Of a DNA stretch of 64,000 nt, positions 14,501 to 64,000 are shown one piece after another; position 1 is the stretch's first letter, and the number at the start of each line of letters is the position of its first letter. The notes under the pieces were generated by a model that was given only the letters and a program-made list of their open reading frames with translations, was not told where the DNA came from and searched no databases. A program made the translations under genes and the position numbers. Source of the DNA: Tubiluchus corallicola (taxonomy: Eukaryota; Animalia; Priapulida); assembly GCA_030141605.1 (NCBI GenBank), contig JAQGDQ010001029.1, positions 1-64,000 on the forward strand, written 5' to 3'.

Positions 14501-16280
14501 ATCATGAGTGGTAATTTCCAATCCATCTTAGCCAACGCTTCTCTATGACCCCACCCACTCTTTCTTAAATTACATAATACCTGATTTTAAATTTTCTTTG
14601 GCCATTTCATACCCAACATATTTTTATACAGATGTCTTATGAAGCAGTTGATTTCGTTTTTCGTTTGTGTACCGTTGACTGTCCACAGTTTAAATTACAC
14701 CTATAAGATTGTACTCGTGATGACCAAATAACTTTTGCATTTTTCCAAAAAGTATGGCTTCCACGCTGTATTGTGTTGTTCTCTGTCTTGGACTCTTGGT
14801 GTCATCTTTTATTTTCAGACTGAAATTTCTCAGAGAGTTGGTTAAAAATAATGCATTTACCAAAATAACTTTGACGTCATTCTAGTGTACTATTGACGTA
14901 TTTGGTATAAATGACGCAAGATAATGGCGTTTCTATGGTTTTCTAGTTCGTTTCTTACAAGTTGTACAAACGTTGTTATGACAGTACGCTTACCAGAACT
15001 AGAAGATGGTGAATTCGAAAAAGGTTCAAATTCAAAATCGTCCTGTATATGAAGGCGAGGGTAGATAGATAGACAGTGCCAACCAATCAGAATCAGCCGA
15101 CGCCGTTGCCGTACGTAAACCGTTATGTTAGTTTTTGCAGTTTTGTCACTGTTAACCAAAGCTAAGACAGCAACCATACCTATTTCTGCATACCACTGGA
15201 AAAATTGCCTTTTGTTTTCAAGAAGATCTAATATAAAAATAAACCATAGATATACTGTGCTCAGTACTTTTGTACTCGCAACCATTTTATTATGTCAAAT
15301 TTTTGTAGGCCTTGTGCAGATAGTACAATACTGAAAGGGCCCCTCTTTGAAGCCCTTTATTTGAAATATGGGACCCCCAACTATGCAAATGTTGCTAAAA
15401 TATATCACAAGCAAAAAATGTTCAAGACGAGAGCGAGCAAATTAGAGTTTGCCTCCTCCTGTGGGACCCCATAATTTCATTAATCTAGGGGTCCCAAAAG
15501 GTCATGATCCGGCCCTGTTCATGCTAAAAATGACAGGGAAGCGACATCAGTAAAAACTGATGTTCACAAAGGCAAATGTGATGGACAAAGGTGTAAAAAT
15601 CAGTCAAAAAACCTAAGAGAAACAGGTCAAGGATAACAAGATAATAGATAACGATGGGTTGAAGTCAAAAATTCCCAAATTAAAAGACAAAGGTGTTAAA
15701 GACAAGCGGTAAAACGACACAGGTGAATAAGACTTGTAAAACTGAAAAAGCAATAATAAAAAAGCAAAGAAAAAAGTCGGTAAGTAAAAAACCAAATGAA
15801 GTAGAATGGGGTTCGATTCATAGAAACTACGCGGTCCGTATCCTTTGACCAGCAACTCTTGATAAAAGTTCTTGGCTTTTTTCCTCTTCGCAAATCTTTC
15901 GAGGACAAACCAAACGTGGCGTAAATCAGCCAACATAATTTTTCGAAAGATAACTAAAACCGAGGAGATAGAGGGACAAAATGAACACGTTTGTAGGGTC
16001 AAAGGTTACAGTGAAATACGTTTAACTGTGTCAATTTGTGTTCGAAATGCTTCAAACATTGATGTCGATGTTCATACGCTCTTTTGTGTTTTCTCTCGTC
16101 TTGATATGGAAACTGCTACCCTCACAGAAGTTGTTTCGTTTATTTGTGGCACGTAAGAAATGGTTAATAATGCAAGGCCAAACAGTGACTACTACACGGT
16201 CTATCAAAATAGACAACAAAGTTATAAAATACAGTGCAGTAGATTACTCCAGTACAATGCACTTTATTTTTCTATAGGTG

Positions 16281-16640
16281 ATGCCAGGCGCCACGTTTGA
16301 GGTGCTTATAGGTCTTCTGATCATTCATGGGATACTCCCAGCGTCGGAACCAAAAGTAGAGACAGGATCTCCTAACGAGAATCCCGGAATGGACTCCCTT
16401 TTTTCCTACTTTGTCGACGAAAATGAAGGTGGAAAGTGTTTCAAGCCGAGGACAGTGAGCGTATGGATGACCAACCGAGGGAAGGATTGTCGAAAGTGCG
16501 TGCAAGGTCCCAACGTGCGGTTTCTTCTAGGAGCAGAGGCGGCAGAAGAATCAATCGACAGGGGCGCGACGTTCAAGAAGTGTTGCGCTAATAACGAGTA
16601 TTACAGAACTTGCAAAATGTTATTGAAAATAAGCAAATGA
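16281..16640 (+). CDS. Secreted cysteine-rich protein 3 (119 aa; signal peptide + one 6-Cys domain)
   Basis: ATG lies 3 nt after the TTTATTTTTCTATAG acceptor. Hydrophobic N-terminus with LIGLLII, then CFKP...RGKDCRKCVQG...CCANNEYYRTC. Confidence 0.83.
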   Translation: MPGATFEVLIGLLIIHGILPASEPKVETGSPNENPGMDSLFSYFVDENEGGKCFKPRTVSVWMTNRGKDCRKCVQGPNVRFLLGAEAAEESIDRGATFKKCCANNEYYRTCKMLLKISK

Positions 16641-26300: not shown

Positions 26301-26690
26301 GTTGAGTTATAACTGGATGAAACCTATTTGAGAACAACATATTTATGTAGTTGGCAACTGAAGAAATGTCTTCATGTTGAAGTAAATTAATATTTATGTC
26401 CCCGCAAATAAAAGCTGTCCTACCTGACGAATTGATAAAGTTTAAGATCTTTTCCATTTCTTCATTAAAGTGACTGACAGATTTGTTGGGGTGCCTGTAC
26501 ACGACGCCAAATAATATAGGTGCTTTATTTCTTGATGTTTTTATCTCGACCCATATATCCTCTACAGCTATTCTGCTAACAGTGTGAGGTAAGTTGGATG
26601 TATATTTTTCGCAGTTAAACTGAATTTCATTAATAACTTTATATTCAAGATTTTTTTTAATATATAGACCTACCCGTTTATATATAGTTA
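23345..26690 (-). mobile_element. 5'-truncated CR1/L2/Crack-group LINE in RPS13 intron 1
   Basis: Intact EN-RT ORF, AT-rich 3' UTR with tandem repeats, a GGTGAGTGT...ACACTCACC hairpin (about 23438-23475), and an AATAAA + (TTCATAG)n tail. Confidence 0.9.
23540..23840. repeat. About 59-bp tandem repeat (about 5 copies) in the LINE 3' UTR
   Basis: Repeated AATATTGAAATAATTTTGAAATAAAGTAAATGATGTAATAATAGCAAGGAAACATAAG units with spacers. Period estimated by eye; it may be nearer 90 bp. Confidence 0.75.
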
Positions 26691-26721
26691 ATATACCCTT
26701 TAATATATAGTTTCCGTACAA
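23971..26721 (-). CDS. LINE ORF2: partial APE endonuclease + reverse transcriptase
   Basis: APE motifs GVVYRHP, GDININL, TLIDHIYTN, LADHLPI. RT motifs NYRPISLL, FLDLSKAFDTV, GVPQGSTLGPLLFLIYINDL, FADDT, KYLG. Confidence 0.93.
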   Translation of the reverse strand: MYGNYILKGILTIYKRVGLYIKKNLEYKVINEIQFNCEKYTSNLPHTVSRIAVEDIWVEIKTSRNKAPILFGVVYRHPNKSVSHFNEEMEKILNFINSSGRTAFICGDININLLQHEDISSVANYINMLFSNRFHPVITQPTRITNNSQTLIDHIYTNEFQNPITAGIIQYELADHLPIFAIVNSSYACKSKSQVQIRDTKRFIPANFLSDLGHSLSNIFNSQLNVNNTFSNFLESFETTLNKHAPIRTLSKRETISFRKPWITPGILKSIRTRSKLYKSHKLSNSLYKKTYYKTYSNKLNHAKQKSKREYYDHLFAVNKNNIKKQWSTINSLLKIKSKTQVAPSYLDNNGHTTSDDLSIANAFNKFFQSVGSNLANKIPPTLKTYQSFLNAPNDKSVFFYPISELEILLSLNKLKENKSPGPENVPVKFYKLATDLIVPVLCRLFNMAVSEGTFPNCLKVAKVKPLYKNDSPNNLSNYRPISLLSPVSKIFENIICNRINNFLTSCNILTKFQFGFRKTYSTSLATSEFVENMLLNLDKKLFTCAIFLDLSKAFDTVQHDILLHKLHFYGIRGPVLELLKSYLTNRQQFTTINNTCSDLLDINCGVPQGSTLGPLLFLIYINDLPLATNFNTRLFADDTSLFLTSNNLSTLQHRTNNELKKIDDWMKANKLTVNYTKTKYMLISRNLSQQDSSTFELKIGDIILTQSSSIKYLGLHIDNNMKWSTHISSTATKLNKTAGIFAKLRHFINLPVLKMIYHALVYPYLQYCVLSWWQTKKYLLQPLITVQNKIVKYMTFANYRDHATSSYIHLSLLKIDDIYNLELFKFMYKYNNRQLPELYTNYFTLIKDVHSHYTRSSSMGHYFQTRFNTAYGLNTLQHSGVILWNSVPNTIISSPSLQIATKQYKIFLLSKYSLA

Positions 26722-27126
26722 GTATAAAGAGAGTATATATATTGAGTATTATCGATGACACTGAATGAAAATAGGTGCTGCAGTTCCGCAGTACCTATAC
26801 ACGAGCCACCACTGGTTATGTCAAAAAAAGTTAATGCAGAAACGTTGTGGTCCTAAAAGATATTGCAAGTAGATTATCCATCCGGTTAAGTGCTGTTAGA
26901 ATGAGAAACATGAAATGCGGGATATGCTTTCTTCTACATAGGTGACTAATAAAAACACAGTAATGCAAGGAAACTGTAAACTAAACGAATGCACTTTATT
27001 ACTGAAATACACCAAACGCAACAAACTTCTAACATTGTGAAAACCGATTTTTAATATACTAAAAGTAAAAATGTAAATTATAAAGCAAAGTTAATAAGCT
27101 AATCGTTAAAATAATGATGATCATAC

Positions 27127-31066: not shown

Positions 31067-31412
31067 TCAATTCACAAAGTCGCCCGTTTCATCTGAATGC
31101 CCCTCAGCCCAGTTGCCGGTGACGCATGTGCCCTTACCCCTCCACCAAGTGTTGACGTCTTCGTAAGACTTGTGTAAATCCGTGTGCAACATGGCACACA
31201 GTCGACACCAGAAATATGTGTTGATGAACCTTCCAGTTCCCTTCCATTGGAAATATTCATTATAGAGGTCGTCGTTTTCATCTAGTTTCTTCAGATAGGC
31301 GCCAAGCTCTTTGGGTCCGGCAAAATCGTCCACGTGTATAAATGAGTGGTAGGGGGCAGCACGTTCGTAGTCTTCTTTCTTTGCACCCATCACTATTGGC
31401 ACAATATCGTTC
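31067..31412 (-). CDS. FucTA: Alpha-1,3-fucosyltransferase (GT10, FucTA-like), last coding exon
   Basis: ttttcag|G AAC GAT; NDIVPIVMGA...SFIHVDDF...LYNEYFQWKGTGRFINTYFWCRLCAMLH. Phase-compatible with the upstream exon. Confidence 0.92.
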
Positions 31413-31739
31413 CTGAAAATGAATGGCATTAAATTAGCAAACAAGTACTTATGCGTTTAAGTCTTTCAAATAATACACGTCCCTATGTCACGAACACCAG
31501 CTGAGTTTTTTACAATAAAAGATACTATGGCTAGAGTTAGACTCCTTATCCACATGCCCATCTGCTAACTACATAAGCTCCCACTCAAAACAGAAAAAGG
31601 GAAGAACCGATCAGGTAACATGGGGCAAAGGTAATAAGGAAACGCTACTTACATACAAGAACATTATCATCATCATCAATTTATCAAAGCCCAATAAACA
31701 TGTAATGAGCTTATTGGAGTTTTGACCATAAAAAACAAA

Positions 31740-32000
31740 ATGTAAACCAGTCAGGTTTGCGCTTTGATTTGAATCAGGATCCAGGGACTTTCGGATTACG
31801 AGTCCAACGGTTATGTTACCAAAGTAGACAGCATAAGGGACTAAGTGGTCCGGCGTCACAGCGTTAGTTTTGTAATCCAAGTGTACCTGGTTCAAACCAA
31901 GCTTGGCTCTGACATTTTCACGGTTGCTTCCTTTCGGTCGTCTGGTTTATATATACAACCGGTTTATAAATATATATATAACCAAGGAAGCAACCGTGAA
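31740..32000. repeat. Divergent pair of tRNA(Thr)-like units plus a hairpin (TTCACGGTTGCTTCCTT...AAGGAAGCAACCGTGAA)
   Basis: Minus strand GGACTCGTAATCC...GATTCAAATC; plus strand TTTTGTAATCCAA...GGTTCAAACC. Confidence 0.4.
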
Positions 32001-33838
32001 TATATATATATCGTATAAATTTTAAGTGCAAATTCGGCTAAATTGTATAAATTTTAAGTGTTTCTTTCCTTTTATTATTATCTTTCCCTAATATATATAT
32101 ATATATATATATATCAATTTAGTTAACTGTTAGTTTGGAGATTATAGATATTTTTAATCAACTGTCCTTGACAACTCGACAAATCCGTATTCACTGACTA
32201 TTCACGGAACTTGAATTTATACAATTCAGCCGAACATGCATTATTCTCAGCTGCAAGAATACTCAAGACGCAGATCAATAAGCATTACACCTCAAGGCAG
32301 TAAAGAATGGTTTCATTTCCACAGTTCTTTACTTCACTCAGTCACCTCAAACAAGCCGCAAGGTTGCGCTATTGTTTGCTTGATCGATTGATTCACTTTA
32401 ATAAACTGCTCTTTCTACCGCCTTGCAAGTTGGAAGGCATCAATTAGGTGAAACCGATGCTGGCGTAAAAGCTCTGGACCTCTAATATACCGGAGTTTCG
32501 CCAAATTCAGCTTTTGATTCGCATTCGTGGCAAGACCGAAACCAGTGATGACCACGTGCAAGATTCGCACATTACTGAACAACAGTGCATACATAGTACC
32601 TATATGGGGACGGGGGAATCAGGGCACTGGGGCTGTAGTAGATGTAGCTTGTAAACAGGCTTATAAATAAACACATAACTATGGAATTATTCAGTAAAGG
32701 AGCAAATAAAGCATTGCATTCAATTTCTATGTGTCATTGTGCAGCAAATACTGCATGTACAAGCCCAAAAATGGCCAAAAACTATCTTTTTGATTAAGTT
32801 AACAAACCTATTAAAGAGGTTTTAGTGTATTCTTAACACGATAATTTCTTTTAAAGACGCCCAGTGAACTATTTTGTCAGTCGATGTCGTGAGCTAAACC
32901 AATTTAAATCAACAATTTTTATAGCCCCGTTCCTTTTGTATTTCAGAATCTCTATGGTAGCCATCTTCAAATTAAAATGGCCACTCTCAATGTCCAAATT
33001 CTGGTCTTATCTCTCCCACCAAGTTGGGTAGAGTTGCATAAATAATTTCATTTAATGTCAGAATGTTATCAGTTTTAAGAAAGAGAGAGACACTATTTAC
33101 AATCAGAAAAAGTTTAGCACGAAGTAAGATTACTGCTATTGTTCAACATTGCAGATTGTTTTATCAGGGAATATCAGCGATGATATGATAAAAAATGATT
33201 ATTTGGAAATTGACATTTGAGAAACTAATATGATCGCCATGCTGATTTTGAAAAGAAAATGAAAATACAACTTTTAGGTTAAGACAGATCCTTAGTTTTC
33301 CAAAATGTACAGCAAAGTTCTATAGCTTATCTAAACTCAAAAAAGTTTGAACGCACCTTATTGTTTTGTTTTCATAAATGAAAAAGTTAAACAATTACTT
33401 GTAAATGGCAATAGTTATGGTAATAATAAATTCATTTAGCATCACAAATTCGGTAGTTAAGATGTTAGTGCATATTATATAGATAAATACGAGCAGAGGT
33501 GACGAAACATCATACGGTCACCACAGCAAAGAGCTGTCAGGCAAAATGAATTTGCTCCAATCTTTCGTTTCTGGACAAGCACGTAGCTATTACTAAAGCT
33601 AAATTATAAAAAAAGAACACGCCTCAAGTCACCTATATCTATCTGCGCAAAGGTAAAAAAGACTGGTAACTGTTTAAGTACTGATCTTAAAAAGTTAAAA
33701 ATTGAAACTCATCACAAAAACAAATCAATTATTACGCGAACGTGTTTCAAATCGAAGCTAAAGCCGAGTAAACTGTCACAAACTAGGTTATATTCAACGA
33801 CCACCATCCTGATTCCCTAACATCATCCAGCCAAACGA

Positions 33839-33852
33839 GTTGCTATGGCAAC
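33839..33852. promoter_or_regulatory. RFX X-box motif
   Basis: GTTGCTATGGCAAC matches the X-box consensus and lies in the FucT intron. Function unproven. Confidence 0.4.
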
Positions 33853-34199
33853 CAGCCTGACGGTTAGCATCCCCTGAAGTATGTGACATATTATACTGAC
33901 TAGGACATCTAAGTTGAAATATAAGGCTATAATGATAACCTAATAATGTAGAAGCCTTTGTAATAAGCTGTTAGCGTCATGACGTACGACACGCGAGGCG
34001 CTGTTTTGACAGAAATGCCACTAACTGTGTATAAAAGATGAGCGTCGTTTACAAATTACTGCTAAATGACGAAAATATAACACTTTTCAAAATTCAAACA
34101 TTATTTTGTTGAAATTCAGAGCAGCGAGAAGAGACGCATTTGAAATTATTCACTGATAAAGACAAAATTTTAATATTGAACACAACCTGAACACATGCG

Positions 34200-34563
34200 T
34201 TATAATAACAACAACAACAACAACAACAACAACAATAATAATAATAACAATAATAATAATGACAATGACAATAACAATATTAATAATAACAACAACAACA
34301 ACAACAACAATAATAATAATCTTTATTTAAAGTCGCTTTTAGGATGAACAATTAACATAAGCTTCAAAGGGCTTTTTGACGACTGTAAATAAGAAATTTA
34401 CAACTATGCAACAGAGGCTATTATTATCCCACTTTTACCCTAAATACCACGCGCTAGGCAGGGCAACAGCAGGTACCATCTTTAAAGTCCTTGATATGAC
34501 TCGTATCGAACTCACGACATTCCAGCTGAAAAGAGGACACTTTACCACTAGACTAAACTGTCT
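34200..34563 (-). mobile_element. tRNA-derived SINE (Meta-domain-like), copy C, with (ATT/GTT)n tail
   Basis: Clear homology to 2030-2275 (TAAATACCACGCGCTAGGCAGGGCAACAGCAGGTACC). Microsatellite tail at 34200-34320. Confidence 0.75.
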
Positions 34564-35789
34564 GGAGTCAAGTAAGTCAGTTAGTTAGTGCACTTCCGTC
34601 ACGCATTAGTTAGCTATATTACTAGGTTTTCGCTAGTATTAACTCTATGCTTACACACTTCGCCATGACTGCACCATAATCATTGGAAAATGTTTCTCAC
34701 TATGTACAGTTTTAGCTATAGTAACGGTAGCAATATATTTAATTATGAAATTAATTTAATCTGAAATAATTTAACGAGTTGCTTAACCATATTTTTTCTG
34801 AGTTCTGTAACAATTCAAACTTGCGTGAAATTTTAAAAACGCCAGGACCGTGTCTGTTAACTTTGGCATGCATAACAGCAGTTGACAAACGACCTAATTA
34901 CACGTCCAGCACAATTAGACAAAAGGCACTTAAACTCACTAACTCTCAATTCCAGAACTGCTTAATTGCTCAGGGGAAAGTAGTTTAATAGACTATGCGA
35001 CACAAACAGAAACGTCTGGGTTTGGTAATACACACATGTCAGAGAATTCCACTTTCACTAGATGGTCTAATTCATTAGTTGATTCAAACTGTATTTATTA
35101 GTACAACATTAATTAGAATAAATACATACATGATCATTAAAGGAAGACAGGATATTTTTAATGCTGTTTTTAATACTAACGTGAAATAATTATTATCATA
35201 GAAACCTCTGCGCGGCTAGTTCTTCGCTGTTACACGCATTTTGCCATTTCCTAGTTAGATGGGTACTAGGGCCAGGGCCTGCCTCTACATTACTATAACT
35301 GTTAAAATATATACATTTTACCGGGCTTCAAACTGAGGTAGGATAGGAAAAATCCTCCTCCTCCATGTTTTCCTTTAAATTCTGCACATCTGACTATTAA
35401 AAGTGGATCGCATTTTATAACGTTCTTGAAATTTTACGGTAATCAATTCGCTTTATAATGTGAATCTCGTTAATTTCAGAGCAATGTGTGGATGTGTATG
35501 ACTATGGATAATGTCTTATGTACTGTAATATGCTCTTGAAAAATCAAAAATTATTTACAACAGAAGTCACAGAAAAAAGTTACAACTAATTTTGGCTATG
35601 GTTAGGATTATTTTTTTTCCAGTGACTTTCCCGCGACTTTTCTAACCGGTGTCTCTTTCACCTGTGGCTTTTTTACCTCTGCCTTCTTTACTTGCATTAG
35701 AAACATACACGTAAAGTGTACTATTTGAAACCAGTACGACGAATTTAAATTTATGACAGTACTACTGATTTTATGCTTTCTGCTACGAG

Positions 35790-35825
<36 letters not shown>

Positions 35826-36429
35826 GTTATTATTATTATTTATTAGGCACAAACAATAAATATATACATTTTATACATGAGTAAAAAGTAAACGGTAAAA
35901 TTATATAGCCATGATCAATACGAAGGTTGTGCCTACCACTGTGTGCCATGGATGACAGCAAGGAACTAAATCCTCAAACAGATCACTGCCTGTGATTCAA
36001 AATGTTTATTCATACACCACTGTAATAGCTCTTAATTACATGTCCTTACGTAAGCGATTATGTTATGTTACGTAAGCGAAATAAAGGTTATTTCGTAATT
36101 TGCAATGCACACAGTATTTGTCAATATACACATTAAATCTTGCACAGTATAATTACTCTGCTGCCCGGATATACATGTACTATATTTAATGGTTTAATCA
36201 GGCTGACATAGATTTTAGCTTATATAACTAATGTGCACAAATACAAAAATAAGTAAAATTATATCTACGTTTTCCATTATCTGTCCTCCCCTTCAATGCA
36301 TCAAACAATCGGCAAAGTTGCCAACTCAAAGAGTGTAAAATTGCGATTTCACAGTTAAGCGATTTCAAAAGGAGCCAGCCCTCGAACTCTAAATCAAAAT
36401 CCTGATTAGTGTGGAGCAGACAAAGAACC

Positions 36430-37345
36430 AGTTGGTGAATTCAGACAAACACATTTGCAATTTACAAAGTCTTTGATATCTGAATGTGACTTTGAAAACT
36501 GTGGAAATTAATTTGAAGGTTTTATAGTAACGTATTCCTCCTGTTACTATTAATGGTGAAAGCGTTGAAAGAGTCAGTTCTGTCAAACTACTAGTTGTCA
36601 ACATCTCTGATAACTCTGATACATGGAATGTACATGTTGAAGAAATACACAAAAAAAAGCCTGCAAACGTACTTACTTAACATTTTTAAAGAGAGCAGGC
36701 ATTTCTCAGAAAGATATGATTACTGTTTATTGTACTTTAATAAGACCAGTATTGGAATATGCTTGTCCTGCATGGCATACTTCATTAACATCAGAACAGA
36801 CAAAGTTACTAGAGTCAATTCAAAAATGTATTTTAAAGTTAAATATCCCAGGCACATCTTACATAAATGCTTTGCAGCTATCAAAAACTGAAATTTATCA
36901 GACCGTAGAAATGCATTTTGCATTTTGAAATGACCAACTGAATTTTTTTAAGTCAATCCAAAATCAAGACAGCAGACTACATTATTTATTACCTAAACAC
37001 AACCACCGTTAGCACAATCTTCGTAAACAACTGATGTACCCTTTGCCTCTCTGCTGTACTGAACGTTTTAAAAGTAGTTTTATACCATGCGCACTTTTTA
37101 ATTATCAGTAAGTTCATTACTACAGTGTACACTGTTTTCACGAGATATTATAATAATGGATTTTAATAAGATTAATCTTAACGAAAATTATTGTCTTTTA
37201 AATGCAATTTAAACTTCAGCCTATTTTAATTGATGTTAGATAAAGTCGTTTTAACGTAATGTAATTTAATTGTAATTTTAAACCTCAGTGTATCTTAATT
37301 AATGTAATGTAATTCAACCTTCAGGTTACCAGAGTTTTAATAATA
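36430..37345 (+). mobile_element. Decayed 3' LINE fragment (CR1/Rex1-Babar group)
   Basis: ERVSSVKLL, YCTLIRPVLEYACPAWHTSLT...LESIQK and TERFKSSFIP motifs with frameshifts. AATAAA(CTTTGAA)n tail. Confidence 0.75.
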
Positions 37346-38960
37346 ATAAACTTTGAACTTTGAAAAAAATTGATTTATTTCTTTATACATACTGTACTGC
37401 ATTGTGTGTATTTGGCTTAGCCCTGTTTAAATGGTGAACATTACACAGAGCTCTGTAAATACCTAAAACATTTTAAAGTACATTTGTGTAAAGTGGGTTC
37501 AAAGACCATCAAGGAGACATTTATATTCTAAATACATCCACCTTCCTCCAACTACATAATATAATTTTTTAATACACGAGTAAAGGGCTTAACCAGTCAC
37601 ACGCACCTCAGCTTGTACGGTTGGAGCCTCTAGCTGGAATGTTTAGAGATAACCACTAACCAGTCAATATTCAACCACCACCACTGCTTGCATGATCACA
37701 AAAACCATGTTGCAATAGTACCATCTTAAGATCCCCCTGAGTAGCTGCTGAAACAGCATTTACTAGCGGGTATAGCTAGAACCCTATAAATAATTATCAT
37801 CGGCTGAAGAACATGTTTTTAGTCAAACACGAACCTGTCCGTCAAAAACAAGTCTATAATTTTAGAAGAACATGTTAGAACTTAGTACCAAGTACAAAAT
37901 GCTTTCTGAAGATCTATGCCTCTTGCATCACTCACTGCAAGACAAATGCCAAAAGATAAGAAGACCAAAGCGTCAAAGATTTGTGACAAAGCACTTGAAG
38001 AATGCACGCATGTCGCTGCAGCAATAACTTGTATAGGTATATCAAAATTTGGTGGAACATTACACGGAAAGCTTGCCCAAATCGGGTGGGTGATGCTCCC
38101 AACTTATGGGGACTTTGTCCATTTACTAAGGTAGCAATAAAAGTTTTCCAATATGCACAGCCATCAAAGAAACTAAGGCTAAGAACAGAAATAAGAATTC
38201 CGTGACAAGTAACTACTATATGACGTCACAAAATGATGTCACAACAATGCTCTATTTTATGACTGGTCGTTAGAAAAAGTCCTTTGTTTAAAGTTTGAAA
38301 TTAAAATTTCCGAAAGTCTTAAGGTTAACTGGACGCACTCTTAAAGGATATCTCAAAACAATCAACCCTATCAAATATTGAAAAGGGAACATACTATTTT
38401 TTCAAGCATAGAATGACTTACGTGAAAGAATTATTACCACAGAATGGTAATTTTGCATTCGCACCACATGCATTTCGCCATTCGATAGTTAGATGGTTAC
38501 TAGCACTTGTACCTCAGAAAAGCATTGTAGAAAAAAACAGGTGCTGTACCACACAGTTCAGAGGTGTGCAGGTGTGATGTAGCATACACAATCAAGAGCT
38601 CATATGTGAGCACAGCGGTAAACTTGAAATTTGAATTTTAAACTTAAAAAAATTCAAGTTTTTATACAGTAGTGCTGTACTTCAATTTCGTTTTCGCAAA
38701 CACGTGCAACATGCTCATGGAATATTCTTTCTTTTGAAAATTATGTTCAGTTCTGATGTCATCACTATATGGGCTCACCAGCCATCAAAAAAGTTTTTAA
38801 GTTATTATTTGATTATCAGAAACGCTTTGCCATTATTACAGGCATTGAAATGTATACTTTTTACCGTATTTCAAAATGGGATACGATATGAAAATTCGTC
38901 CTGTTTTCCTTCAAACTAAAAGGTAGCCAACTTATGCATCAATTTCAACAGAAGACTTAC

Positions 38961-39997
38961 CTTAAGCCAGTATCGAAGAATTTCTCTGTGATATAATCAC
39001 GACAGTTAGAGTTTTCAAAAGATAAATAGAATTTGTACTGCTTATTGAGCATCTTAGTGCACTGTTTATGTTGACTTCTCGGACAGCTAAGTGACCCGCA
39101 GCTTCCGTAAATGTCTACGGGAACATGATTTCCTAATTCATTTGCGTACTTTAGACGATCATTTCTGGATCCACAATTTGACACAAACCAAGCAACCATC
39201 TTAGTCTTACCCTCGGCGTAGTCTCTGTTTTGTGGCAATGTTCGCACTTTAGAATCGTAAAGTTCAAACCTTTCATACGGAGTCACAATGTCGGAATCGT
39301 GCCGATAGGTGGCAGTCCAGTTGAAAACATTACTGAATCCGCCTAACCACTGTGAGTGATACGGACACTCTAGCTGATACCAGATCCAAACCTGACTGGA
39401 CGGTCGATGCTGAGACGAAACTGAGCTCGAGCTGAAATAGTTCCGAAACAAGATGGCGTCTGCATTAGCACCGGGATTTTTGTGTTCCGTCAGTTCACAG
39501 GTGTCTATACGACACTTCTGCTGCTGGAATAGCAACCGTCCACTCGGTACGTTCCAAAATCTTAGCCCTGTTTGAACGTAAATGAGCTTGAGTGTTTCGG
39601 GATTGGGCTTTTCCTTGGGAGAATAGTTCAACTGCTCTATGATACGATCACCCGCATCTTGATGTGGCCACAAGGGTAGCTTAGATACCACACTGGAAGC
39701 ATTGCTAAGACATGTAATGTCGTCTGGTACTGGTTTAACCTCATACAAGGTGACCGGGGCACTCGTATTTGGTTGAGAAATCATGTCACGGGGTACCATA
39801 TTTTCCTTTTTGGGTGTAGCTATGTTTTGTGGCGGGTTTTTCAGAAGAACCACTTGATCGCCGCTCCGCATCTCTCTGGCCATCTGCCAAACACTTTCAA
39901 GACTATTGTTTGTCGAAAGCCTCAAATTTAGGAGCAAAACCATGACTAGCACAACACCCCCGAAGATCAAGATTGAACGCCGTACGGAGAACCTCAT
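38961..39997 (-). CDS. FucTA: Alpha-1,3-fucosyltransferase (GT10, FucTA-like), first coding exon (joined protein 460 aa)
   Basis: Type II TM N-terminus, then FNWTATYRHDSDI, VAWFVSNC, VDIYGSCG and YKFYLSFENSNCRDYITEKFF (alpha-1,3-FucT motif). AG|GTAAGT donor at 38961/38960. Confidence 0.93.
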
Positions 39998-56635: not shown

Positions 56636-57380
56636 AGTAGGATAGATGTTACACCTCTGGCCGATTTCCCGGGGGGGGTGGGGATTTCCCCGGGGGGGTG
56701 GGGAAAAACACCCCTAAAAAAGTGCGAAAATCCGGGAAAACCCCTAAAAAAGTGTGAAAACCCGTGTGAAAGTGCGCACGTGACCGAAATCGACGAAAAA
56801 GCGCGAAAAACAAAGAAAAACGAAGAAAAGGCGTGTGAAACGAGGTAAAAATTTTCCATTTTTTCCCTCCCGCATGGCTTCATTTGGATCGAATGACCTT
56901 GAACTCTAGGTCACGTGACCAAAGTTCATTGACCCCTGGCCCCTGGATGGCTTCTTTTTTTGACGCCCCATTTTAAACCGCGCGAAAGCGCGCGAAAGCG
57001 TGCGAAAGTGTGTGAAAGCGCGTGAAAGCGCGTGAAAGTGCGCGAAAGCGTGTGAAAGTGTGTGAAACGAGGTAAAAAGCGCCTCAAACGAAGAAAAAGG
57101 GAGAAGTGGAGTTCCCGCCGAGGACTAATTAGTGCTAATTGGCGCTAATTGGCGCTAATTGGGGAGCCCCTGCCACCCCTCCGCCGCGTGCAAACGTCCG
57201 TCCCGGGGGTCGGGGACACCCCCCTGCAACCCACCCCTCCGTCGCATGGAATCGTCCACTGCAGGCAATGAGGGAAATCTTTTTCCCGCCACTCGCGCAG
57301 TGCCGGCCCTTTTCCGCGACCACTTCTCTCTCTCGGGTGCCCTCCCTTTTCCGCGACCACTTCTCTCGCGGGTTTAGATG
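56636..57380. repeat. Putative left TIR region with G-tracts and 10-bp tandem repeats
   Basis: GATTTCCC(C)GGGGGGG(G)TGGGG x2, nine 10-bp units (consensus YGYGAAAGYG) at 56981-57067, and (CTAATTGGCG)x3. The partner TIR is outside the window. Confidence 0.6.
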
Positions 57381-57672
57381 TGTGTGTGTGTGGAGATTTA
57401 TTTCAAATGCCAAAGTTCGATAAATGCATTTTCACAAATCTTTTTTATTGATGGATTACAGGTGTGGAGATTTATTTGAAACGCCAAATTTCGATAAATG
57501 CATTTTCACAAATCTTTTTTTATTGATGGATTACAAAAAATTTTTTTTACATTTTTTATGCAAAATACATACGTGCTAAAACTAGATTATTATTATTATT
57601 ATGGTGACATGATAGTTCTACATTTTACGTTTTTTTCGCAAATTACACAAATTACGCAAAATTACAGTAAAA

Positions 57673-58257
57673 CTACACTAATGACGACGAGCGAGTACAT
57701 GGATTGTCGTCGTCGATGTGATACAGACAAACGTTATTGTTGTTAAAAACGAATTCGTTAAATTTGCGGAAAACGCGAGAGAAATCCTCGACCTTTGTCC
57801 CGCCCATCATTATTATGCTTCCGGTGTGAAAAATGTTCAGAGTAATTTGCTCGCATTTGCAAGTTAGTTTGGGAAATAGTTCCACTTCGTAAAACACTTC
57901 TCTAAAAGAATGCGTCGAAGGACGAACGAGTTCTTCGTACAGTGCACCCAGTTTCAATCTGCAGTGAATTTTGGCTCTGGCGGTGATGGTGCGAATTGCG
58001 ATCCCGTCGGCGGGCGTCAGTCCGAGACCTTTCGAGAGTTCTTCGATCGCATTGCGTAGTGCTTTTTCCTCCGAAAAACCGTTGGCCACCACGGAGCCGG
58101 AGGCAAAAATCATCAGCGTCCTGCCCAGTCGCTTTAGCAGAACCATTTGCGGTTTCCTTTCGTAGCGTCTTCCGCCCGTTCTCCGCCGGAGTTCGTTCAG
58201 ATCGAAGCGCTGCGAGAACGAAGCAGTGGCGACGATGTTGACCGTTTGGACTGACAC
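57673..58257 (-). CDS. TATA-binding protein (TBP)-like protein of the Polinton (about 194 aa from GTG)
   Basis: Two TBP repeats: NIVAT...RFDL...MIFASGSVVANG and RLKL...YEVELFPKL...NIFHTGSIIMMGGTK. Compare TBP NIVST/LIFSSGKMVCTG and YEPELFPGL/LIFVSGKVVLTG. Confidence 0.85.
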   Translation of the reverse strand: MSVQTVNIVATASFSQRFDLNELRRRTGGRRYERKPQMVLLKRLGRTLMIFASGSVVANGFSEEKALRNAIEELSKGLGLTPADGIAIRTITARAKIHCRLKLGALYEELVRPSTHSFREVFYEVELFPKLTCKCEQITLNIFHTGSIIMMGGTKVEDFSRVFRKFNEFVFNNNNVCLYHIDDDNPCTRSSSLV

Positions 58258-58709
58258 GTTAGAACGTAGTTGGCAATCGTTTCGGACGCCCGAACCGCTC
58301 TGCCTCGCCCGTTGCTCTGCCAACGTATGGCGGGCGGCGGGTGCTCGCTTTCCAAATCTTCTACGCGTATGACCACGCGATTTTTGGGGAGATGTTTTTT
58401 GACGAAATCGTACATCTCTGCTCCCTTGACGTAGGTGATCCTGCCTCTGGTGGTCTGTCGTAGAATGTTTTCCAATTCTGCATACTCGATCATTCCCTCC
58501 TCCCACGAGATGCCGTGTATGTGTCTGATTAGGTAGTTGTAGGTGGATCGCTTGTGCTGGGGAACGCGATTCCAGGGGTGGGGCGGTTTGAAGGTGTAGT
58601 TGTGATATATGCCGGTCTCTATTTCGCGAATTACCAAATTTTTGACCAGGTATTCTTCTTTTCCGCACTGGAAGGCATCTATGGTGAGAACTATGCTCGA
58701 TTCAGACAT
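58197..58709 (-). CDS. Polinton accessory protein, DnaQ/DEDD exonuclease-like fold (possibly inactive)
   Basis: LTIDAF...KNL...FKPP...HGISWEEG.IEY...YVKG pattern, seen in Polinton-associated exonuclease-like ORFs as I recall them. ATG overlaps the upstream stop. Confidence 0.6.
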   Translation of the reverse strand: MSESSIVLTIDAFQCGKEEYLVKNLVIREIETGIYHNYTFKPPHPWNRVPQHKRSTYNYLIRHIHGISWEEGMIEYAELENILRQTTRGRITYVKGAEMYDFVKKHLPKNRVVIRVEDLESEHPPPAIRWQSNGRGRAVRASETIANYVLTCQSKRSTSSPLLRSRSASI

Positions 58710-58932
58710 CTGTGACGATGGGGGGTCCTTCTACGCCGTCGGCAACGAGTTTTCCTTCGATGACGATTTGCTTGTGATTGTTCACAAATTCCAGAGACTT
58801 GATTTTTTCGAAGGTGTATTTTTTTATGACCTTGTTGGGGGCACTCTTGCGTGCGTTGGCGCGCTTGCCGCCCCGCGTCCCCGCTTGTTGTTGTTGCTTG
58901 CGAGGAACGGTGGTTAGAGGTTGTTTGAAATC
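58702..58932 (-). CDS. Small basic protein exon (DFKQPLTTVPRK...), probably spliced to leader exon 60124-60210
   Basis: Strong acceptor TTCTTCTTCTCTTGCAG, no own ATG, and phase 0 like the leader donor. Confidence 0.55.
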   Translation of the reverse strand, partial: DFKQPLTTVPRKQQQQAGTRGGKRANARKSAPNKVIKKYTFEKIKSLEFVNNHKQIVIEGKLVADGVEGPPIVTDV

Positions 58933-58986
58933 CTGCAAGAGAAGAAGAAGAACAATAGTTATAGTATTGTTGTTCGCTAACGACAA

Positions 58987-60000
58987 CTAGGCATTTTTGA
59001 TGAGCCATTCTTTCAGATTTCTAGGTTTTTTGGGGGCAGTGGGGGTGAGCACCATCGGCGGCGATGGAGGGGGCGTCGCGGAAATTACGAGTTTGTCTTC
59101 TTCTTTATCATCATCTTTCTCCTCTTCCTCCTCCTCCTCTCGAAAGATGTCCATTCGTGTCCCTCTCTCGCGTCTGCTTTTACACGGAGGGGCGGAGGTG
59201 CCGACGTCGACGACATTGCCGGCAGACTTCTTTCCGTCCAGTTTGTCCAGTTCCTCGCGTACCCGTCTTCTCGTATCTGCTCCTTTCAATATTCTGCGTC
59301 CCATTCTACCGATGATGACGCACTGTCCATTTAGCAGACTTCCATCCCTAATGGACACTCCCTCGATGCAGAGGAAACCTTGCCAAACTGTCATTCTACG
59401 ACGCGGCGACAATTGACATTCGTAGTATTCGTCGTCGTCCTCTATTTTGTCTATCTCCCCCTGTAGTTTTTCGTATTCTTCCAGATGGAGGTTGATGCCG
59501 GGTTTGGTCGGAACGAGCGTGGCGACGCCGTCGCTGTCCTCGTATTTCCTCTTCACTTTTTCGACTGCCCGTCTGAGACCTATGCTGGGATGCGTTGCCC
59601 ATTTGCTGATCAACACGTAGGTCTGCCCACACAGAAAGATGGCACCCGGATGTCGTTGACGTTGATACTTTGCCCTCGTCCAGTAGTGTGACATTTTCAC
59701 GGCTATGATCATCCTATCGATTAATTCCGATTCCAGCAGTGCCTGTACGGCCTCCTGACTCAACTCGAAATTTTGCTCGGGAAAGATGAAGAGCGGTCTA
59801 GAGTTTGCTATCATGAAAGACGTTCTGGCAGACAGTTGTATTTCAAAATCCGTATAAGATATCTCCTCGTTCAAGGCAGTCAGTATTTCTTCTCGTTTAC
59901 GTACGAGTTTGCCATACTCCATCACCGTCAAAGACGCGTGCTTCCCCCTAGTGAGTTTTTCGGTAGCGGGATCGTAGTTAGATCGTCGCCGAAAGTGAAC
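58987..60000 (-). CDS. PC4/Sub1-like ssDNA-binding/coactivator repeat protein, exon 2 (joined protein 366 aa)
   Basis: TYVLISKW...IGLR...PTKPGINLHLEEYEKLQGEIDKI, compare PC4 RYVSVRDF...IDIRE...[23 protein letters not shown]. Acceptor TTTTATTCGTAG. Acidic/Pro/basic C-tail. Confidence 0.75.
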   Translation of the reverse strand, partial: VHFRRRSNYDPATEKLTRGKHASLTVMEYGKLVRKREEILTALNEEISYTDFEIQLSARTSFMIANSRPLFIFPEQNFELSQEAVQALLESELIDRMIIAVKMSHYWTRAKYQRQRHPGAIFLCGQTYVLISKWATHPSIGLRRAVEKVKRKYEDSDGVATLVPTKPGINLHLEEYEKLQGEIDKIEDDDEYYECQLSPRRRMTVWQGFLCIEGVSIRDGSLLNGQCVIIGRMGRRILKGADTRRRVREELDKLDGKKSAGNVVDVGTSAPPCKSRRERGTRMDIFREEEEEEEKDDDKEEDKLVISATPPPSPPMVLTPTAPKKPRNLKEWLIKNA

Positions 60001-60123
60001 CTACGAATAAAAGGTCAAAAATTTTTTTAACACGCTCCTGCCCCCTGATGCTAAATAAAACAGGAAAAAAACAACGTTTCGGTATTCGAAATGCTAGAAA
60101 AATAATAATGAACATTTACTCAC

Positions 60124-60210
60124 CTGATACACCTCGTCTAAGGATGAAAGCGATGTTGACAAATCGTGTGTCAGCGGATACACCAAGGCATCATTCTCCA
60201 TCATTAACAT
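60124..60210 (-). CDS. Leader coding exon of the leftward Polinton cassette (MLMMENDALVYPLTHDLSTSLSSLDEVYQ)
   Basis: Open 29-codon frame ending in a perfect CAG|GTGAGT donor. A 123-nt intron joins it in frame to 60000. Confidence 0.7.
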
Positions 60211-60289
60211 ATAGCGATGTTTTTTCGTCGTCTGCGGATGTATGTGCTATCGCTGTGTCGCTCGAGACACTTGTGTCATCCCCCCGTCA

Positions 60290-60575
60290 AAACACCCCAT
60301 TATATAGCCGCTCTCTTCCGGTTGACGTCACCCAACGGTCGTTTGCCGTTAACAATAGCTCAAGCGTGAATGACGCAGCGTCTGTTCACTCTACCGTTTT
60401 CCCGCCAAACCGTCACGATGCGTCACACTACACGGCATCTATTGTGAAAAAAACACGCTGTTTGAACACGTTCGAGTGGGCTAACCGTTTTTTTTCGTAT
60501 GCATTGCGGTATTTTTATTCTTATTTTGATACAAAATTTATAAAGGAAGGTAGATTAATTTATTTGGTAATTACG
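60290..60575. promoter_or_regulatory. Divergent Polinton promoter region
   Basis: Minus-strand TATATAA (60306-60300), CTTCCGG (ETS-like), TGACGTCA CRE at 60323-60330, TTTCCCGC (E2F) at 60398, and plus-strand TATAAA at 60539. Confidence 0.55.
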
Positions 60576-61211
60576 ATGGATCGAATTTATGATGCGAGAT
60601 TGAAATTTGGCAGCACCATGTTGGTGGCCGGACCCACTCGCGCCGGGAAAACCACTTTTGTAAAAAATTTACTCCTTCATCGGAACGTGTTGTTCGATGC
60701 TAAACCGGACAGGGTGTTGTGGATTTCGCAAACACCCCCTCCACTAGCCTCCTCTCGCGAAGAATTACAAGAAGTGGAGTACAGCGAGGACATAAATGTC
60801 GGAATACGTGCGGGAGATCTGGTGGTGGTAGACGACATGATGACGGAACTAGCCACCTCCAAACGACTGACTGACATGTTCACAAAGCTAGCACACCACA
60901 AACCGTGTTTCGTGGTTTTCATCACGCAAAATCTTTTTCAACAGAGCAAAGAATCGAGAACGCGCAGTCTAAACACCCACTACTTGGTGTTATTCAAAAA
61001 TCCGCGCGACAAGATGCAGGTGGAAGTGTTGGGTAGACAGATGTATCCGGGTAAAACGAAATCTTTTAGGGAGGCTTTCGAGCGCGCCACCGCAGCACCC
61101 TTTTCTTACGTGCTATTCGATTTGCGTCAGGAAACCGACGATGCCATTCGCATGAGAAGTAACATATTTCCTCACGAAGTACCACAATTGGTTTTTCTTC
61201 CTCAAAAATGA
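60576..61211 (+). CDS. Polinton packaging ATPase (FtsK/A32-like)
   Basis: Walker A GPTRAGKT, Walker B LVVVDD, FTKLAHH, ITQNLF, RTRSLNTHYLVLFKNPRD. Likely start MDRIYD. Confidence 0.93.
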   Translation: MDRIYDARLKFGSTMLVAGPTRAGKTTFVKNLLLHRNVLFDAKPDRVLWISQTPPPLASSREELQEVEYSEDINVGIRAGDLVVVDDMMTELATSKRLTDMFTKLAHHKPCFVVFITQNLFQQSKESRTRSLNTHYLVLFKNPRDKMQVEVLGRQMYPGKTKSFREAFERATAAPFSYVLFDLRQETDDAIRMRSNIFPHEVPQLVFLPQK

Positions 61212-61271
61212 GATAAGCAAAATGGTGCGCGTTGCATGCGACATAGAATTATTAACGACAACCGCAAAAAA

Positions 61272-61649
61272 ATGTCTCAAGCGCGCATTAGACGACACAG
61301 ACCTTTTCTCAAGCAACTCGCTCGTGCCAAACCGCGCGATAGGAGGGAGATGTTAAAGTGGGCCGATGCCGATGCGATTAATTTTTTGGCAGAATGCGCT
61401 CTCAACATACTACGCGGTAATGTGAAGTTGAAAACCAAACAGATAAAGGTATTGAGGGGACATCGCAATGTGCTGAGAAAATTGGCACGCGCCGGTTCCA
61501 CGTTGAAGGCCAGAAGACGTGCGCTAGTGCAAAAAGGTGGTATATTTCCAATCATACCCCTCTTGGCGGGCATATTTGGCGCCACTTCGGCTGCTGCTAG
61601 CGTAGCCAGAACGGTGAAGACATTCCGCGATAAGAAGAAAAAGAAATAA
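61272..61649 (+). CDS. Basic virion core-like protein with putative adenain cleavage site and amphipathic tail
   Basis: Arg/Lys-rich, ECALNILRGNV motif, LVQKGG|IFPIIPLLAGIFG. Confidence 0.75.
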   Translation: MSQARIRRHRPFLKQLARAKPRDRREMLKWADADAINFLAECALNILRGNVKLKTKQIKVLRGHRNVLRKLARAGSTLKARRRALVQKGGIFPIIPLLAGIFGATSAAASVARTVKTFRDKKKKK

Positions 61650-61650
61650 A

Positions 61651-62448
61651 ATGTATTCTCAGATGGTTTTACTACCGCTGGCAGAGTATAACAGGTTAAA
61701 ACATACGCGCCTCGTTCTAGACACGCCCGTCGAGCAGAAAACTGTAGAAATTCAACAGAAAATGGCGGAATTGGCAGCTCGAGGATTGCCACCCGATGTG
61801 GAAAATAAGATGAGAAGCGAATTGATGCAGGAGATCAAAGATTTGAAAAAACCCTCCTCCACGGGCGAAGATGACGATGGAACCCGACTGAAAGACACTC
61901 AAATAATCGAGGCATTACCCACCAAGTACAAGAGTAGGGGACAAAAAATGCTCTCCTTTTTGAAGGCCCATCGAACGCGTTGGGATGAAATGGGGCGTTT
62001 CGTGCACGAGGGACGCGCAATGAGTGGCACGCACCTGGTGGACTTGATAAATTTTGCTACAACTAGCGAGAAGATGACTCCCCCTCGCGGTTGGTCCGAC
62101 TTTTATCGTCATCTCAAAGAAATAAGTGTGCCCATGACTCTATTGGGTAAAACGGCTAAGACAGAACTCGAGAAGGGTCAACAGCAACAACAGCAGCGCG
62201 AAAGGTTGGGACTGACGACACCCCCATCCTCTCTAGCGCATCGACGCGTGGTGGCCGATGACGAAGCGAGGACAGCGACACCGACACCACCACCACCACC
62301 AGCCCCTCTACCTTCTAATAAACGAACCACGCGAAAACGTGGACCTCAACAACAACAACAACAGCAACAACAGCATCCTCGTCGCCGACGTCGACGACAA
62401 TCCTCACCCATAGTTAGAGAATGGGTGAGACTGGAGACAGAAGATTAG
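61651..62448 (+). CDS. Conserved uncharacterised Polinton protein (265 aa)
   Basis: Tightly packed between the core gene and integrase. W.E.G...GTHLVDL...PRGWSDF...VP motif and a Pro/Gln/Arg-rich tail. Confidence 0.75.
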   Translation: MYSQMVLLPLAEYNRLKHTRLVLDTPVEQKTVEIQQKMAELAARGLPPDVENKMRSELMQEIKDLKKPSSTGEDDDGTRLKDTQIIEALPTKYKSRGQKMLSFLKAHRTRWDEMGRFVHEGRAMSGTHLVDLINFATTSEKMTPPRGWSDFYRHLKEISVPMTLLGKTAKTELEKGQQQQQQRERLGLTTPPSSLAHRRVVADDEARTATPTPPPPPAPLPSNKRTTRKRGPQQQQQQQQQHPRRRRRRQSSPIVREWVRLETED

Positions 62449-63515
62449 CCGAAATCTACTACGATTTGCGTCATCCTGCCGGTTATGCTAGCGCACGTGC
62501 ATTGAAACGCGCCTCTGGCGACACGATGCGTCGCGTGCGCGAATGGTTGAGTGCACAATCCGCCTACACCCTCCACAGGGGTGCCAGACGTAGTAGATAT
62601 GACACTCGCCCGACTTTGACGCGCGGTATCGATTATCAATGGCAAGCCGATTTGGTAATTATGGACGCGCTATCCAAATATAACGATGGCTACAAATACA
62701 TGTTAACCGTGGTGGATTGTTTTAGTCGTTATGCCTGGGCGAGAGCTTTGAAGAGTAAAGGTGGACGCGAAACTGCCGAGGCTCTACGCTCCATATTCGA
62801 AGAGGAGGGGCGCGCGCCCCTCAAATTACACACGGACAAGGGTAAAGAATTTCAAAATAGACATGTACAAAAATTGTTGAAAGACTATGGCATATATTTT
62901 TTCACCACGGAAAGTGTCTACAAGGCGGCCCTGGTGGAACGTTTTAACAGAACTTTAAAATCGAGATGCTACAAAGTTTTCACCCATCGCAACACCCTGA
63001 GATGGATAGATTTTCTCCAAGATCTGGTGTACGGATACAATGGTGCCACACATCGCACCATAGGAATGGCACCGCGCGAGGTGAATGCACGAAACGAGAT
63101 GCTTTTGTGGAGAAAATTATATGCCAAAGGAAGGAGGCGAAGAAAGAAAGATTTAAGAACACCTTCGAAATTAGTGGTGGGGGATTTGGTGCGTCTTTCC
63201 AAAGTCAAGGGACGTTTCGAAAAGTCTTACTTTCCCAACTGGACGGAAGAACTGTTCACGGTTAGTGCGGTGTCCGAAGGTGACGATTTCGCCACTTGGC
63301 CGCCCGCTTACCGCATATCCGATCACACCGGCGAAGAAGTGCGCGGTATATTTTATCGTGAAGAATTACAGAAAGTGATCAAGACGGACGACGTTTATCG
63401 CGTGGAAAAAGTACTCAAAACCAAAGGTAGAGGAAGACATAAGCGTTTCTTTGTAAAATGGTTGGGTTATCCCACAGAGTTTGCCAGCTGGATAACTGCA
63501 GAAGATTTTGTGTAG
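62421..63515 (+). CDS. Retroviral-like (rve) integrase with C-terminal chromodomain
   Basis: WQADL, VDCFSRYAW, HTDKGKEF and VERFNRTLK (DDE). YRVEKVL...FFVKWLGYP...SWI chromodomain. Confidence 0.96.
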   Translation: MGETGDRRLAEIYYDLRHPAGYASARALKRASGDTMRRVREWLSAQSAYTLHRGARRSRYDTRPTLTRGIDYQWQADLVIMDALSKYNDGYKYMLTVVDCFSRYAWARALKSKGGRETAEALRSIFEEEGRAPLKLHTDKGKEFQNRHVQKLLKDYGIYFFTTESVYKAALVERFNRTLKSRCYKVFTHRNTLRWIDFLQDLVYGYNGATHRTIGMAPREVNARNEMLLWRKLYAKGRRRRKKDLRTPSKLVVGDLVRLSKVKGRFEKSYFPNWTEELFTVSAVSEGDDFATWPPAYRISDHTGEEVRGIFYREELQKVIKTDDVYRVEKVLKTKGRGRHKRFFVKWLGYPTEFASWITAEDFV

Positions 63516-63522
63516 AAAAAAC

Positions 63523-64000
63523 ATGATACCGGGTAGTTTTTCCGTGTTATTGCCCTCTAATGCCTCTCCCAAAGTGTATCCGGAGAACAGGCCGGGCGCC
63601 TTTCGCGTACAACTGCTCGATCCGCTAGAGCTGAAGGGAAACTGGGAAGTGGGTCTGACAGAAATAGTCTATCCGCGCTCATTCTACAATTACGAGGACA
63701 ACGAGTCGGTGGCCTTTATGACCCACGAGCGTGCCGTCAAGCTACCAGTGCTAACCGAATTTGCCGCACACTCCAAAAGGTTTAAACACATAGAGCTACC
63801 AAATGGACATTATAGCGATGCAAAAGAGCTGATGCACTACATAAATCAACAACTTCCCAAAAAGTTTTTCAACGTCACCTTTCACCCCATATCTAGACAC
63901 TCCCACTGGGCGGTTAAGGGAGAACTTTCCACTCTGGTCTTACGTAAACCGGTCACCGACATGATGGGTTTTTGGAACTTACCTTCGGCGATACTCACCA
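63523..64000 (+). CDS. Polinton minor capsid (penton) protein, truncated by the window end
   Basis: MIPGSFSVLLPSNASPKVYPENRPGAFRVQLLDPLELKGNWEVGLTEIVYP carries the LPSN...WEVGL.EI.YP signature. The frame appears open to the window end. Confidence 0.85.
   Translation, partial: MIPGSFSVLLPSNASPKVYPENRPGAFRVQLLDPLELKGNWEVGLTEIVYPRSFYNYEDNESVAFMTHERAVKLPVLTEFAAHSKRFKHIELPNGHYSDAKELMHYINQQLPKKFFNVTFHPISRHSHWAVKGELSTLVLRKPVTDMMGFWNLPSAILT

Follow-up and report, generated by a model that had tools for sequence, protein, structure and literature searches.

A TBP gene near the left end of a Maverick/Polinton element

In the window, a 64,000-nt stretch of DNA from Tubiluchus corallicola, a high-copy Maverick/Polinton element carries a gene for a core-only TATA-binding protein (TBP) close to its left end (Table 1). 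The element has two hallmarks of its class, an rve integrase with a chromodomain and a packaging ATPase, the latter 32–46% identical to ATPases from nine Maverick loci. In sequencing run X4 one contig ends at 56635 and a joint enters at 56636, which marks the left boundary; the repeats that follow presumably form a terminal inverted repeat, and the right end lies outside the window. Four sequencing runs from two studies, DNA-type or without a label, contained 69–78% of the words of 57500–63500; one of them may be where the window itself comes from. Depth over the element was far above that of the flanks, and the TBP gene had the depth of the rest of the element, with one run (X6) leaving it uncovered; depth, summed or single, is not copy number, hence 'high-copy' only. 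The earlier note on this DNA, which described the TBP, was silent on its Maverick/Polinton context, on the GTG start and on the hint of relaxed constraint reported below.

Table 1 Features of the Maverick/Polinton element within the window
Feature	Position	Strand	Basis
Element left end, AGTAG start, with 10-bp, 20-bp, 37-bp and 74-bp repeats	56636..57560	.	Repeat analysis
AATAAA, second copy	57444–57449	−	Sequence
AATAAA, candidate poly(A) signal, 150 nt past the TBP stop	57519..57524	−	Sequence; function inferred
TBP gene, core-only, 194 codons, GTG start	57673..58257	−	PF00352; model and Foldseek
170-aa ORF, overlapping the TBP start by 61 nt	58197..58709	−	Homologues in 21/68 TBP loci
311-aa ORF, weak PC4-like match	58987..59922	−	Pfam PF02229, E 0.057, under cut-off
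TATAAAG, candidate late-promoter box, 36 nt upstream of the ATPase start, counted from ATAA	60539..60545	+	
Packaging-type ATPase, likely start 60576	60576..61211	+	Weak FtsK/AAA matches
ATAAGC at the ATPase gene end; relatives have ATAAAC there	61213..61218	+	
137-aa conserved Maverick ORF	61236..61649	+	Homologues in 22/68 loci
265-aa ORF without family match	61651..62448	+	Pfam
ATAAAC, 103 nt before the integrase	62318..62323	+	
Retroviral-type integrase with chromodomain	62421..63515	+	Pfam rve 63.9 bits, Chromo 26.1 bits
ATAAGC within chromodomain codons; L094 and L098 have ATAAAC there	63439..63444	+	
ORF start resembling the gene after the Maverick integrase, exits the window	63523..64000	+	Translation; class in 12/68 loci

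The 170-aa ORF belongs to what we take to be a DEDD-exonuclease-like Maverick family; it had no Pfam match, a profile of eight sequences had no PDB match, and its single-sequence model reached a pLDDT of 37. Two features of seven relatives, the first acidic residue and a Cys/His cluster at the C terminus, are missing from this ORF, so the exonuclease-like product may be inactive. The ORF that leaves the window presumably encodes a minor capsid protein. Between the PC4-like gene and the left end (57444–59922), minus-strand AATAAA occurs only downstream of the TBP stop, and the three leftward genes may therefore share one 3′ end.

The TBP retains the saddle fold with an altered DNA-binding face

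The TBP frame is uninterrupted over its 194 codons, and Pfam recognized two stretches of PF00352 (80.6 bits against a cut-off of 22.9, E = 7.8e-23). The protein matched 32 distinct PDB sequences, with TBP present in all 32. An AlphaFold2 model built from a 10-sequence alignment (pLDDT 90.2, pTM 0.82) took the saddle fold, and its best Foldseek matches were TBPs without exception, among them yeast 1tbp (E = 1.1e-10, TM 0.77/0.83, 22% identity). It shares the two-repeat saddle of cellular TBPs (yeast 1ytb and 1tbp, human 1cdw) at a TM of about 0.8. The ESM Atlas returned generic TBP clusters only for this protein, with the recognition score under threshold. The profile match and the modelled saddle bear out the description, in the earlier note, of a TBP homologue consisting of the core with both repeats.

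In yeast numbering, N69, F116, F190, F207, E186, E188 and P191 are common to the window TBP and cellular TBPs, whereas F99→P, A101→M, N159→T, V161→T, P187→V and L205→N are replacements. F99→P leaves three of the canonical four intercalating phenylalanines and N159→T leaves N69 of the canonical pair of central asparagines, while residue conservation at E186 and E188 indicates that the acidic C-terminal stirrup is retained. The reading made from the sequence alone, in which three phenylalanines and the acidic stirrup were kept and the first phenylalanine and the repeat-2 asparagine replaced, was correct at each of these residues.

In cellular TBP, a basic patch on helix 2 binds TFIIA, TAF1, Brf1 and Mot1. 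Its residues R137, K138, R141 and K145 are E, E, K and L in the window TBP, whose helix 2 has a net charge of −1; the figure for 25 Maverick TBPs is −1.4, compared with a mean of +3.1 for 22 eukaryotic TBPs. Besides losing this patch, the window TBP differs from cellular TBP in having no N-terminal extension and a shortened first stirrup, and in being virus-borne; its identity to the 22 eukaryotic TBPs is 21–27%.

A TBP type that recurs among Mavericks

A profile-free scan of 1.84 billion representatives yielded 129 matches, including short TBPs in which [RK]PxM occupies the place of the first phenylalanine. A profile built from ten of these short TBPs led to a larger set, and an alignment of 23 proteins of that set led to 68 metagenome loci. 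A Maverick core gene was present in 38 of the 68 loci and in 23 of the 29 that were at least 3 kb long. One locus (L008) combined PolB, PLA2, TBP, ATPase and integrase, together with genes that we assume to encode capsid proteins (no Pfam match), and PolB and protease occur in related loci.

Among relatives extracted from 66 loci, F99→P was found in 60/60 with a residue at that position, the scan patterns having left out position 99 and taken in position 205 and the seed proteins having been proline-bearing. F116 (64/64), F190 (65/66), F207 (65/65) and E188 (65/66) were nearly invariant, and N159 was retained in none of the 66. The window TBP carries the set F99→P, N159→S/T, V161→T and L205→N, and judged by these residues it belongs to a Maverick TBP type that recurs among such elements. 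Its sole close relative from single-sequence searches, P0001, was 58% identical and had the same saddle residues; identity to the Maverick TBP clade behind the motif statistics was 17–26%. Scans of viral contigs with the window TBP, integrase and ATPase returned nothing, or only five giant-virus-type TBPs.

In a tree of 115 hand-picked rows with trait columns included, the window TBP fell together with 25 TBPs from Maverick loci and 17 proteins selected by motif (SH-aLRT 97). In a 52-row subset analysed under a mixture model with ten trait columns removed, it grouped with P0001, P0002, P0003 and P0008 (98/94), proteins with no element known around them, apart from the main Maverick clade. A single origin with that clade was neither shown nor rejected (p-AU 0.33). 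A clade uniting the window TBP and its closest relative with ten eukaryotic TBPs, mostly fungal or protist, was rejected (p-AU 0.014) in a tree without TRF2 and without TBPs of the host phylum. The earlier note had argued that the protein is too divergent for a recent host capture; both the 21–27% identity to eukaryotic TBPs and the rejection of nesting among them, in that tree, agree with this.

Maverick TBPs of one sub-branch (L042–L068, for example L058 and L063) are about 150 aa long and additionally lack helix 1 and the greater part of helix 2. P0004, from a DPANN archaeon, is 702 aa long and contains four TBP-like stretches. Twenty-seven contigs with Maverick-like integrases (L087–L113) came from bacterial or archaeal metagenome-assembled genomes, 15 of them from one bin; since L094 and L095 carry TBP and the ATAAAC box described below, at least these two are probably mis-binned eukaryotic virus DNA.

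An ATAAAC box precedes the non-TBP genes of related elements

For the motif count, related loci, seven of which had been inspected by eye beforehand, were dereplicated, and a gene was retained if an ATG lay near its expected start and at least 120 nt of upstream sequence was available. ATAAAC occurred at −120 to −15 of 90 of the 97 non-TBP genes that qualified, compared with a shuffle mean of 6.9. It ranked first of all 6-mers before these genes; the reverse strand gave a count of 1. Some sites extend over Y-K-Q or H-K-Q codons of the gene upstream. Before TBP genes, ATAAAC was found in 2 of 43 cases and TATAAA in 16 of 43 (shuffle mean 5.3, maximum 11). The family box before non-TBP genes reads [T/C]ATAAAC. 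These counts are drawn from elements whose TBP clade is not the closest kin of the window TBP.

As a control we used 40 loci picked by integrase alone, of which 2 had a TBP and 38, mostly fragments, did not. The box preceded 9/11 genes in the former compared with 7/56 in the latter. Three of these seven genes came from L098, which falls within a TBP-bearing integrase clade, and two from L074, a near-complete 12.3-kb locus in which TBP was not detected and TATAAAC precedes two of six genes. L074 is a real counter-example to the pairing of box and TBP, unless its TBP lies off the contig. TBP-positive elements make up only two integrase clades, so a paired test was infeasible.

The box is degenerate in the window, where the sole exact plus-strand ATAAAC in the element is the copy before the integrase. 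A relaxed pattern, ATAA[AG][CG], precedes four of five rightward genes and none of three leftward genes, with a P value (0.0002) that is inflated because the pattern was picked after the sites had been seen. The ATAAGC in the chromodomain may reflect His-Lys codons.

The altered N-terminal half of the TBP saddle would sit at the 7/8 end of the box, and it is at position 7, with C, that the family box departs from consensus. TBP kinks its box at steps 1/2 and 7/8 through two phenylalanine pairs, as the accessible text of PMC10005294 describes. The accessible part of a recent preprint (10.1101/2025.08.25.672222) reports that a proline next to F190 favours T at position 1, from which we infer that the altered N-terminal half faces the 7/8 end. 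Altered TATA specificity, one of the suggestions in the earlier note, is indirectly supported by saddle changes and a non-canonical box that are both family-wide.

Start codon and constraint in the window lineage

The TBP gene begins with GTG at 58257, with A at −3; relatives start at the same place, six codons before N69. The TBP frame has no in-frame ATG upstream of an internal ATG at 58146, and a start there would delete strand 1, helix 1 and the first stirrup. P0001 is likewise called from an internal Met. The dominant family in four runs has the same GTG; at that codon, one sister contig of low depth has a standard start. Inspection by eye revealed no canonical slippery site at which ribosomes could shift from the upstream ORF to the frame of the TBP. 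That frame continues without a stop for 148 codons further upstream (58258–58701, minus strand), beneath the neighbouring ORF; the chance of this is 0.001–0.003 in a post hoc test, and runs in other genes reach 116. The four majority differences within the stretch leave the protein of the upstream ORF unchanged, and it is thus this ORF, not an extension of the TBP, that appears to be under selection. Translation through a near-cognate start or a spliced leader is possible; the gene had been called intronless, which holds for the TBP core and, given a possible spliced leader, may fail for the whole gene.

In the dominant family, the TBP frame is open in one 753-nt contig (depth 536) that differs from the window by eight substitutions and an in-frame 6-nt indel. 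The TBP showed one silent and four replacement differences compared with 15 and 3, among the differences listed, in six neighbouring genes (P = 0.017, Fisher exact test); these counts are small, coming from the 40 of 125 rows listed plus sister data, and are complete for the TBP-spanning contig. None of the five TBP differences touches a saddle or stirrup residue, and at two of the four replacements the majority residue is that of P0001. In the sister families an apparent stop was discounted, the underlying counts covering only the rows listed and scoring codons with several changes one change at a time. Weakened constraint on the window TBP is suggested by its GTG start together with its 4:1 excess of replacements.

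A candidate early/late switch and its alternatives

We read the gene as the core-only TBP of a Maverick/Polinton endogenous virus, likely the element's own late-promoter factor. In this reading, to which we assign a probability of roughly 0.5, the protein would activate late genes independently of TFIID, together with the TFIIB and Pol II of the host. Under this proposal, host machinery would make the viral TBP early, and the TBP would then occupy the minor groove of the variant box: its C-terminal phenylalanine pair, which is intact, would lie at the 5′ end, and its proline-substituted N-terminal half would accept C at position 7. The acidic stirrup would maintain contact with host TFIIB, and loss of the basic convex patch would allow escape from TFIID, TFIIA and Mot1-type control. 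One small protein would in this way provide the early/late switch of an element in which no RNA polymerase gene was seen.

Several results are consistent with such a role. The box is common before other genes but no more frequent than background in front of the TBP gene, the pattern that a late activator would be expected to give, and DNA bending is probably retained because the three phenylalanines and N69 are nearly invariant. Recruitment of host TFIIB is suggested by E188, present in 65/66 relatives: the accessible text of PMC10005294 gives the C-terminal stirrup glutamate as the main TFIIB contact (E146 in Arabidopsis TBP2, the same position). Tentatively, and with odds that we think lie somewhat against it, the proposal may be widened to several animal lineages, whose Mavericks would share an early/late programme, a single core-only TBP, the [T/C]ATAAAC box and TFIID-free use of TFIIB and Pol II. 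The window element would then be a separate branch, with its box shifted to ATAAGC alongside different N-terminal saddle residues, and with TBP output kept low by a non-AUG or spliced start.

The missing ATG start and the replacement excess could also mean that the family-level function is real and that the TBP of the window lineage is decaying or barely translated, with the element using host TBP or a helper Maverick family; we consider this unlikely, though it deserves serious weight. Neither the window nor the dominant family has an in-frame ATG where the start is expected, whereas the sister contig has a standard start, the 1:4 and 15:3 ratios of silent to replacement differences (among those listed, P = 0.017) diverge, the majority carries the P0001 residue at two of four replacements, and the late box is degenerate in the window. 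However, the dominant family, which has high depth, keeps an open frame, none of the five differences falls on a saddle or stirrup residue, the counts are small and drawn from the 40 of 125 rows listed plus sister data, and the GTG has A at −3, so that a near-cognate start or a spliced leader is possible. Decay also figures in a reading that we regard as very improbable, in which a decayed host TBP or TRF2 retrocopy lies in the element by chance. Its core without an intron, its lack of an ATG and its replacement excess would fit a retrocopy, but a clade with eukaryotic TBPs was rejected (p-AU 0.014, tree without TRF2), the TBP has the depth of the rest of the element, and it shares F99→P, N159→T/S, V161→T and L205→N with Maverick TBPs. 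The retrocopy reading is largely refuted.

A different objection concerns the box. ATAAAC could be a weak TATA element read by host TBP, leaving the viral TBP to serve as a TFIIB titrator, a TATA-occupying decoy or repressor, or a terminus binder, which we hold to be an improbable account with some points in its favour. L074 has the box and no detected TBP, and the TFIIB glutamate is the best conserved partner surface. A decoy TBP would, on the other hand, be expected to retain the basic patch that binds host cofactors. That patch is lost, which weakens the suggestion, made when the gene was first noted, of a decoy sequestering host factors. Host TBP does tolerate C at position 7, judging from the title of PDB 1qn3 and from the accessible text of PMC10005294, where it keeps 27% activity on TATAAACG; and a Giardia TBP with lost phenylalanines switched to binding single-stranded DNA, according to the available portion of PMC12209930. 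Against host reading of the box stand its occurrence before 90/97 other genes and at background before the TBP gene, together with the near-invariant three phenylalanines and N69, by which DNA bending is probably retained.

Relation to known TBPs

If the preferred reading as a late-promoter factor is true, a core-only TBP and a matching box would form a late-transcription system far smaller than the six-protein herpesvirus complex. The herpesvirus protein ORF24, a TBP of the beta- and gammaherpesvirus kind, has a polar saddle and reads a variant late box, TATTWAA, in the accessible part of 10.1101/2025.08.25.672222. Like the window TBP, ORF24 of KSHV is a viral TBP with, as described there, a more polar saddle, and it reads a variant late box and uses host Pol II, as the window TBP is proposed to do. 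ORF24 is, however, a large protein with four phenylalanines and without the TFIIB glutamates, and it contacts Pol II directly and depends on five partners, whereas the window TBP is core-only, has lost one phenylalanine and retains the TFIIB glutamates.

TBPs of Nucleocytoviricota and mirusvirus-like elements also have a divergent viral form of the fold, at 12–20% identity (BFVD; accessible text of PMC10675990). In the Maverick loci examined, no gene for an RNA polymerase or TFIIB was seen. Many of the Nucleocytoviricota and mirusvirus-like viruses have their own RNA polymerase or TFIIB. Loss of phenylalanines with changed DNA binding is described for TRF2/TBPL1 and protist TBPs in the accessible parts of PMC10005294 and PMC12209930 (TRF2 compared by description); those are host genes, whereas the window TBP is viral and loses the first phenylalanine only.

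A TBP on Maverick-like viruses has already been labelled in the literature, and viral TBPs are known from giant viruses, mirusvirus-like elements and herpesviruses. MELD viruses with adintovirus-like PolB carry the abbreviation 'TBP' in the Fig. 5 legend of Starrett et al. 2021 (PMC8502044; preprint 10.1101/697771), which places a TBP-like gene in a midsize Polinton-type virus, as in the window element. In the accessible portion of that paper the MELD TBP appears as a legend abbreviation only, without residue, promoter or functional analysis, and one of its supplements gave 0 matches to TBP. Beyond passing mentions, neither a Maverick TBP nor its box had been analysed in the literature within reach of our search, which did not extend to figures, bioRxiv supplements or subscription papers; on related promoters only virophage and PLV papers surfaced, and the literature reached offered no explanation for the timing of animal Maverick/Polinton capsid genes. 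One protein and one 7-bp site make the proposed late switch tractable, and Maverick TBPs offer a natural experiment on the share of the first phenylalanine and the second asparagine in TATA specificity.

Other features of the window

Three related host ORFs on the plus strand (6099–6776, 11286–12233 and 16278–16640) have signal-peptide-like starts and a common cysteine pattern; Pfam gave no match for the two that were searched. An alpha-1,3-fucosyltransferase gene on the minus strand (31067–39997) has two long exons (38957–39997 and 31067–31456), and its named homologues are invertebrate only, the best from Priapulus caudatus (62%). The minus-strand segment 21450–21794 resembles what we take to be a ribosomal protein S13 exon. 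A LINE-type reverse transcriptase ORF occupies 23971–26748 on the minus strand, and a 2-kb trinucleotide satellite lies at 1–2065.
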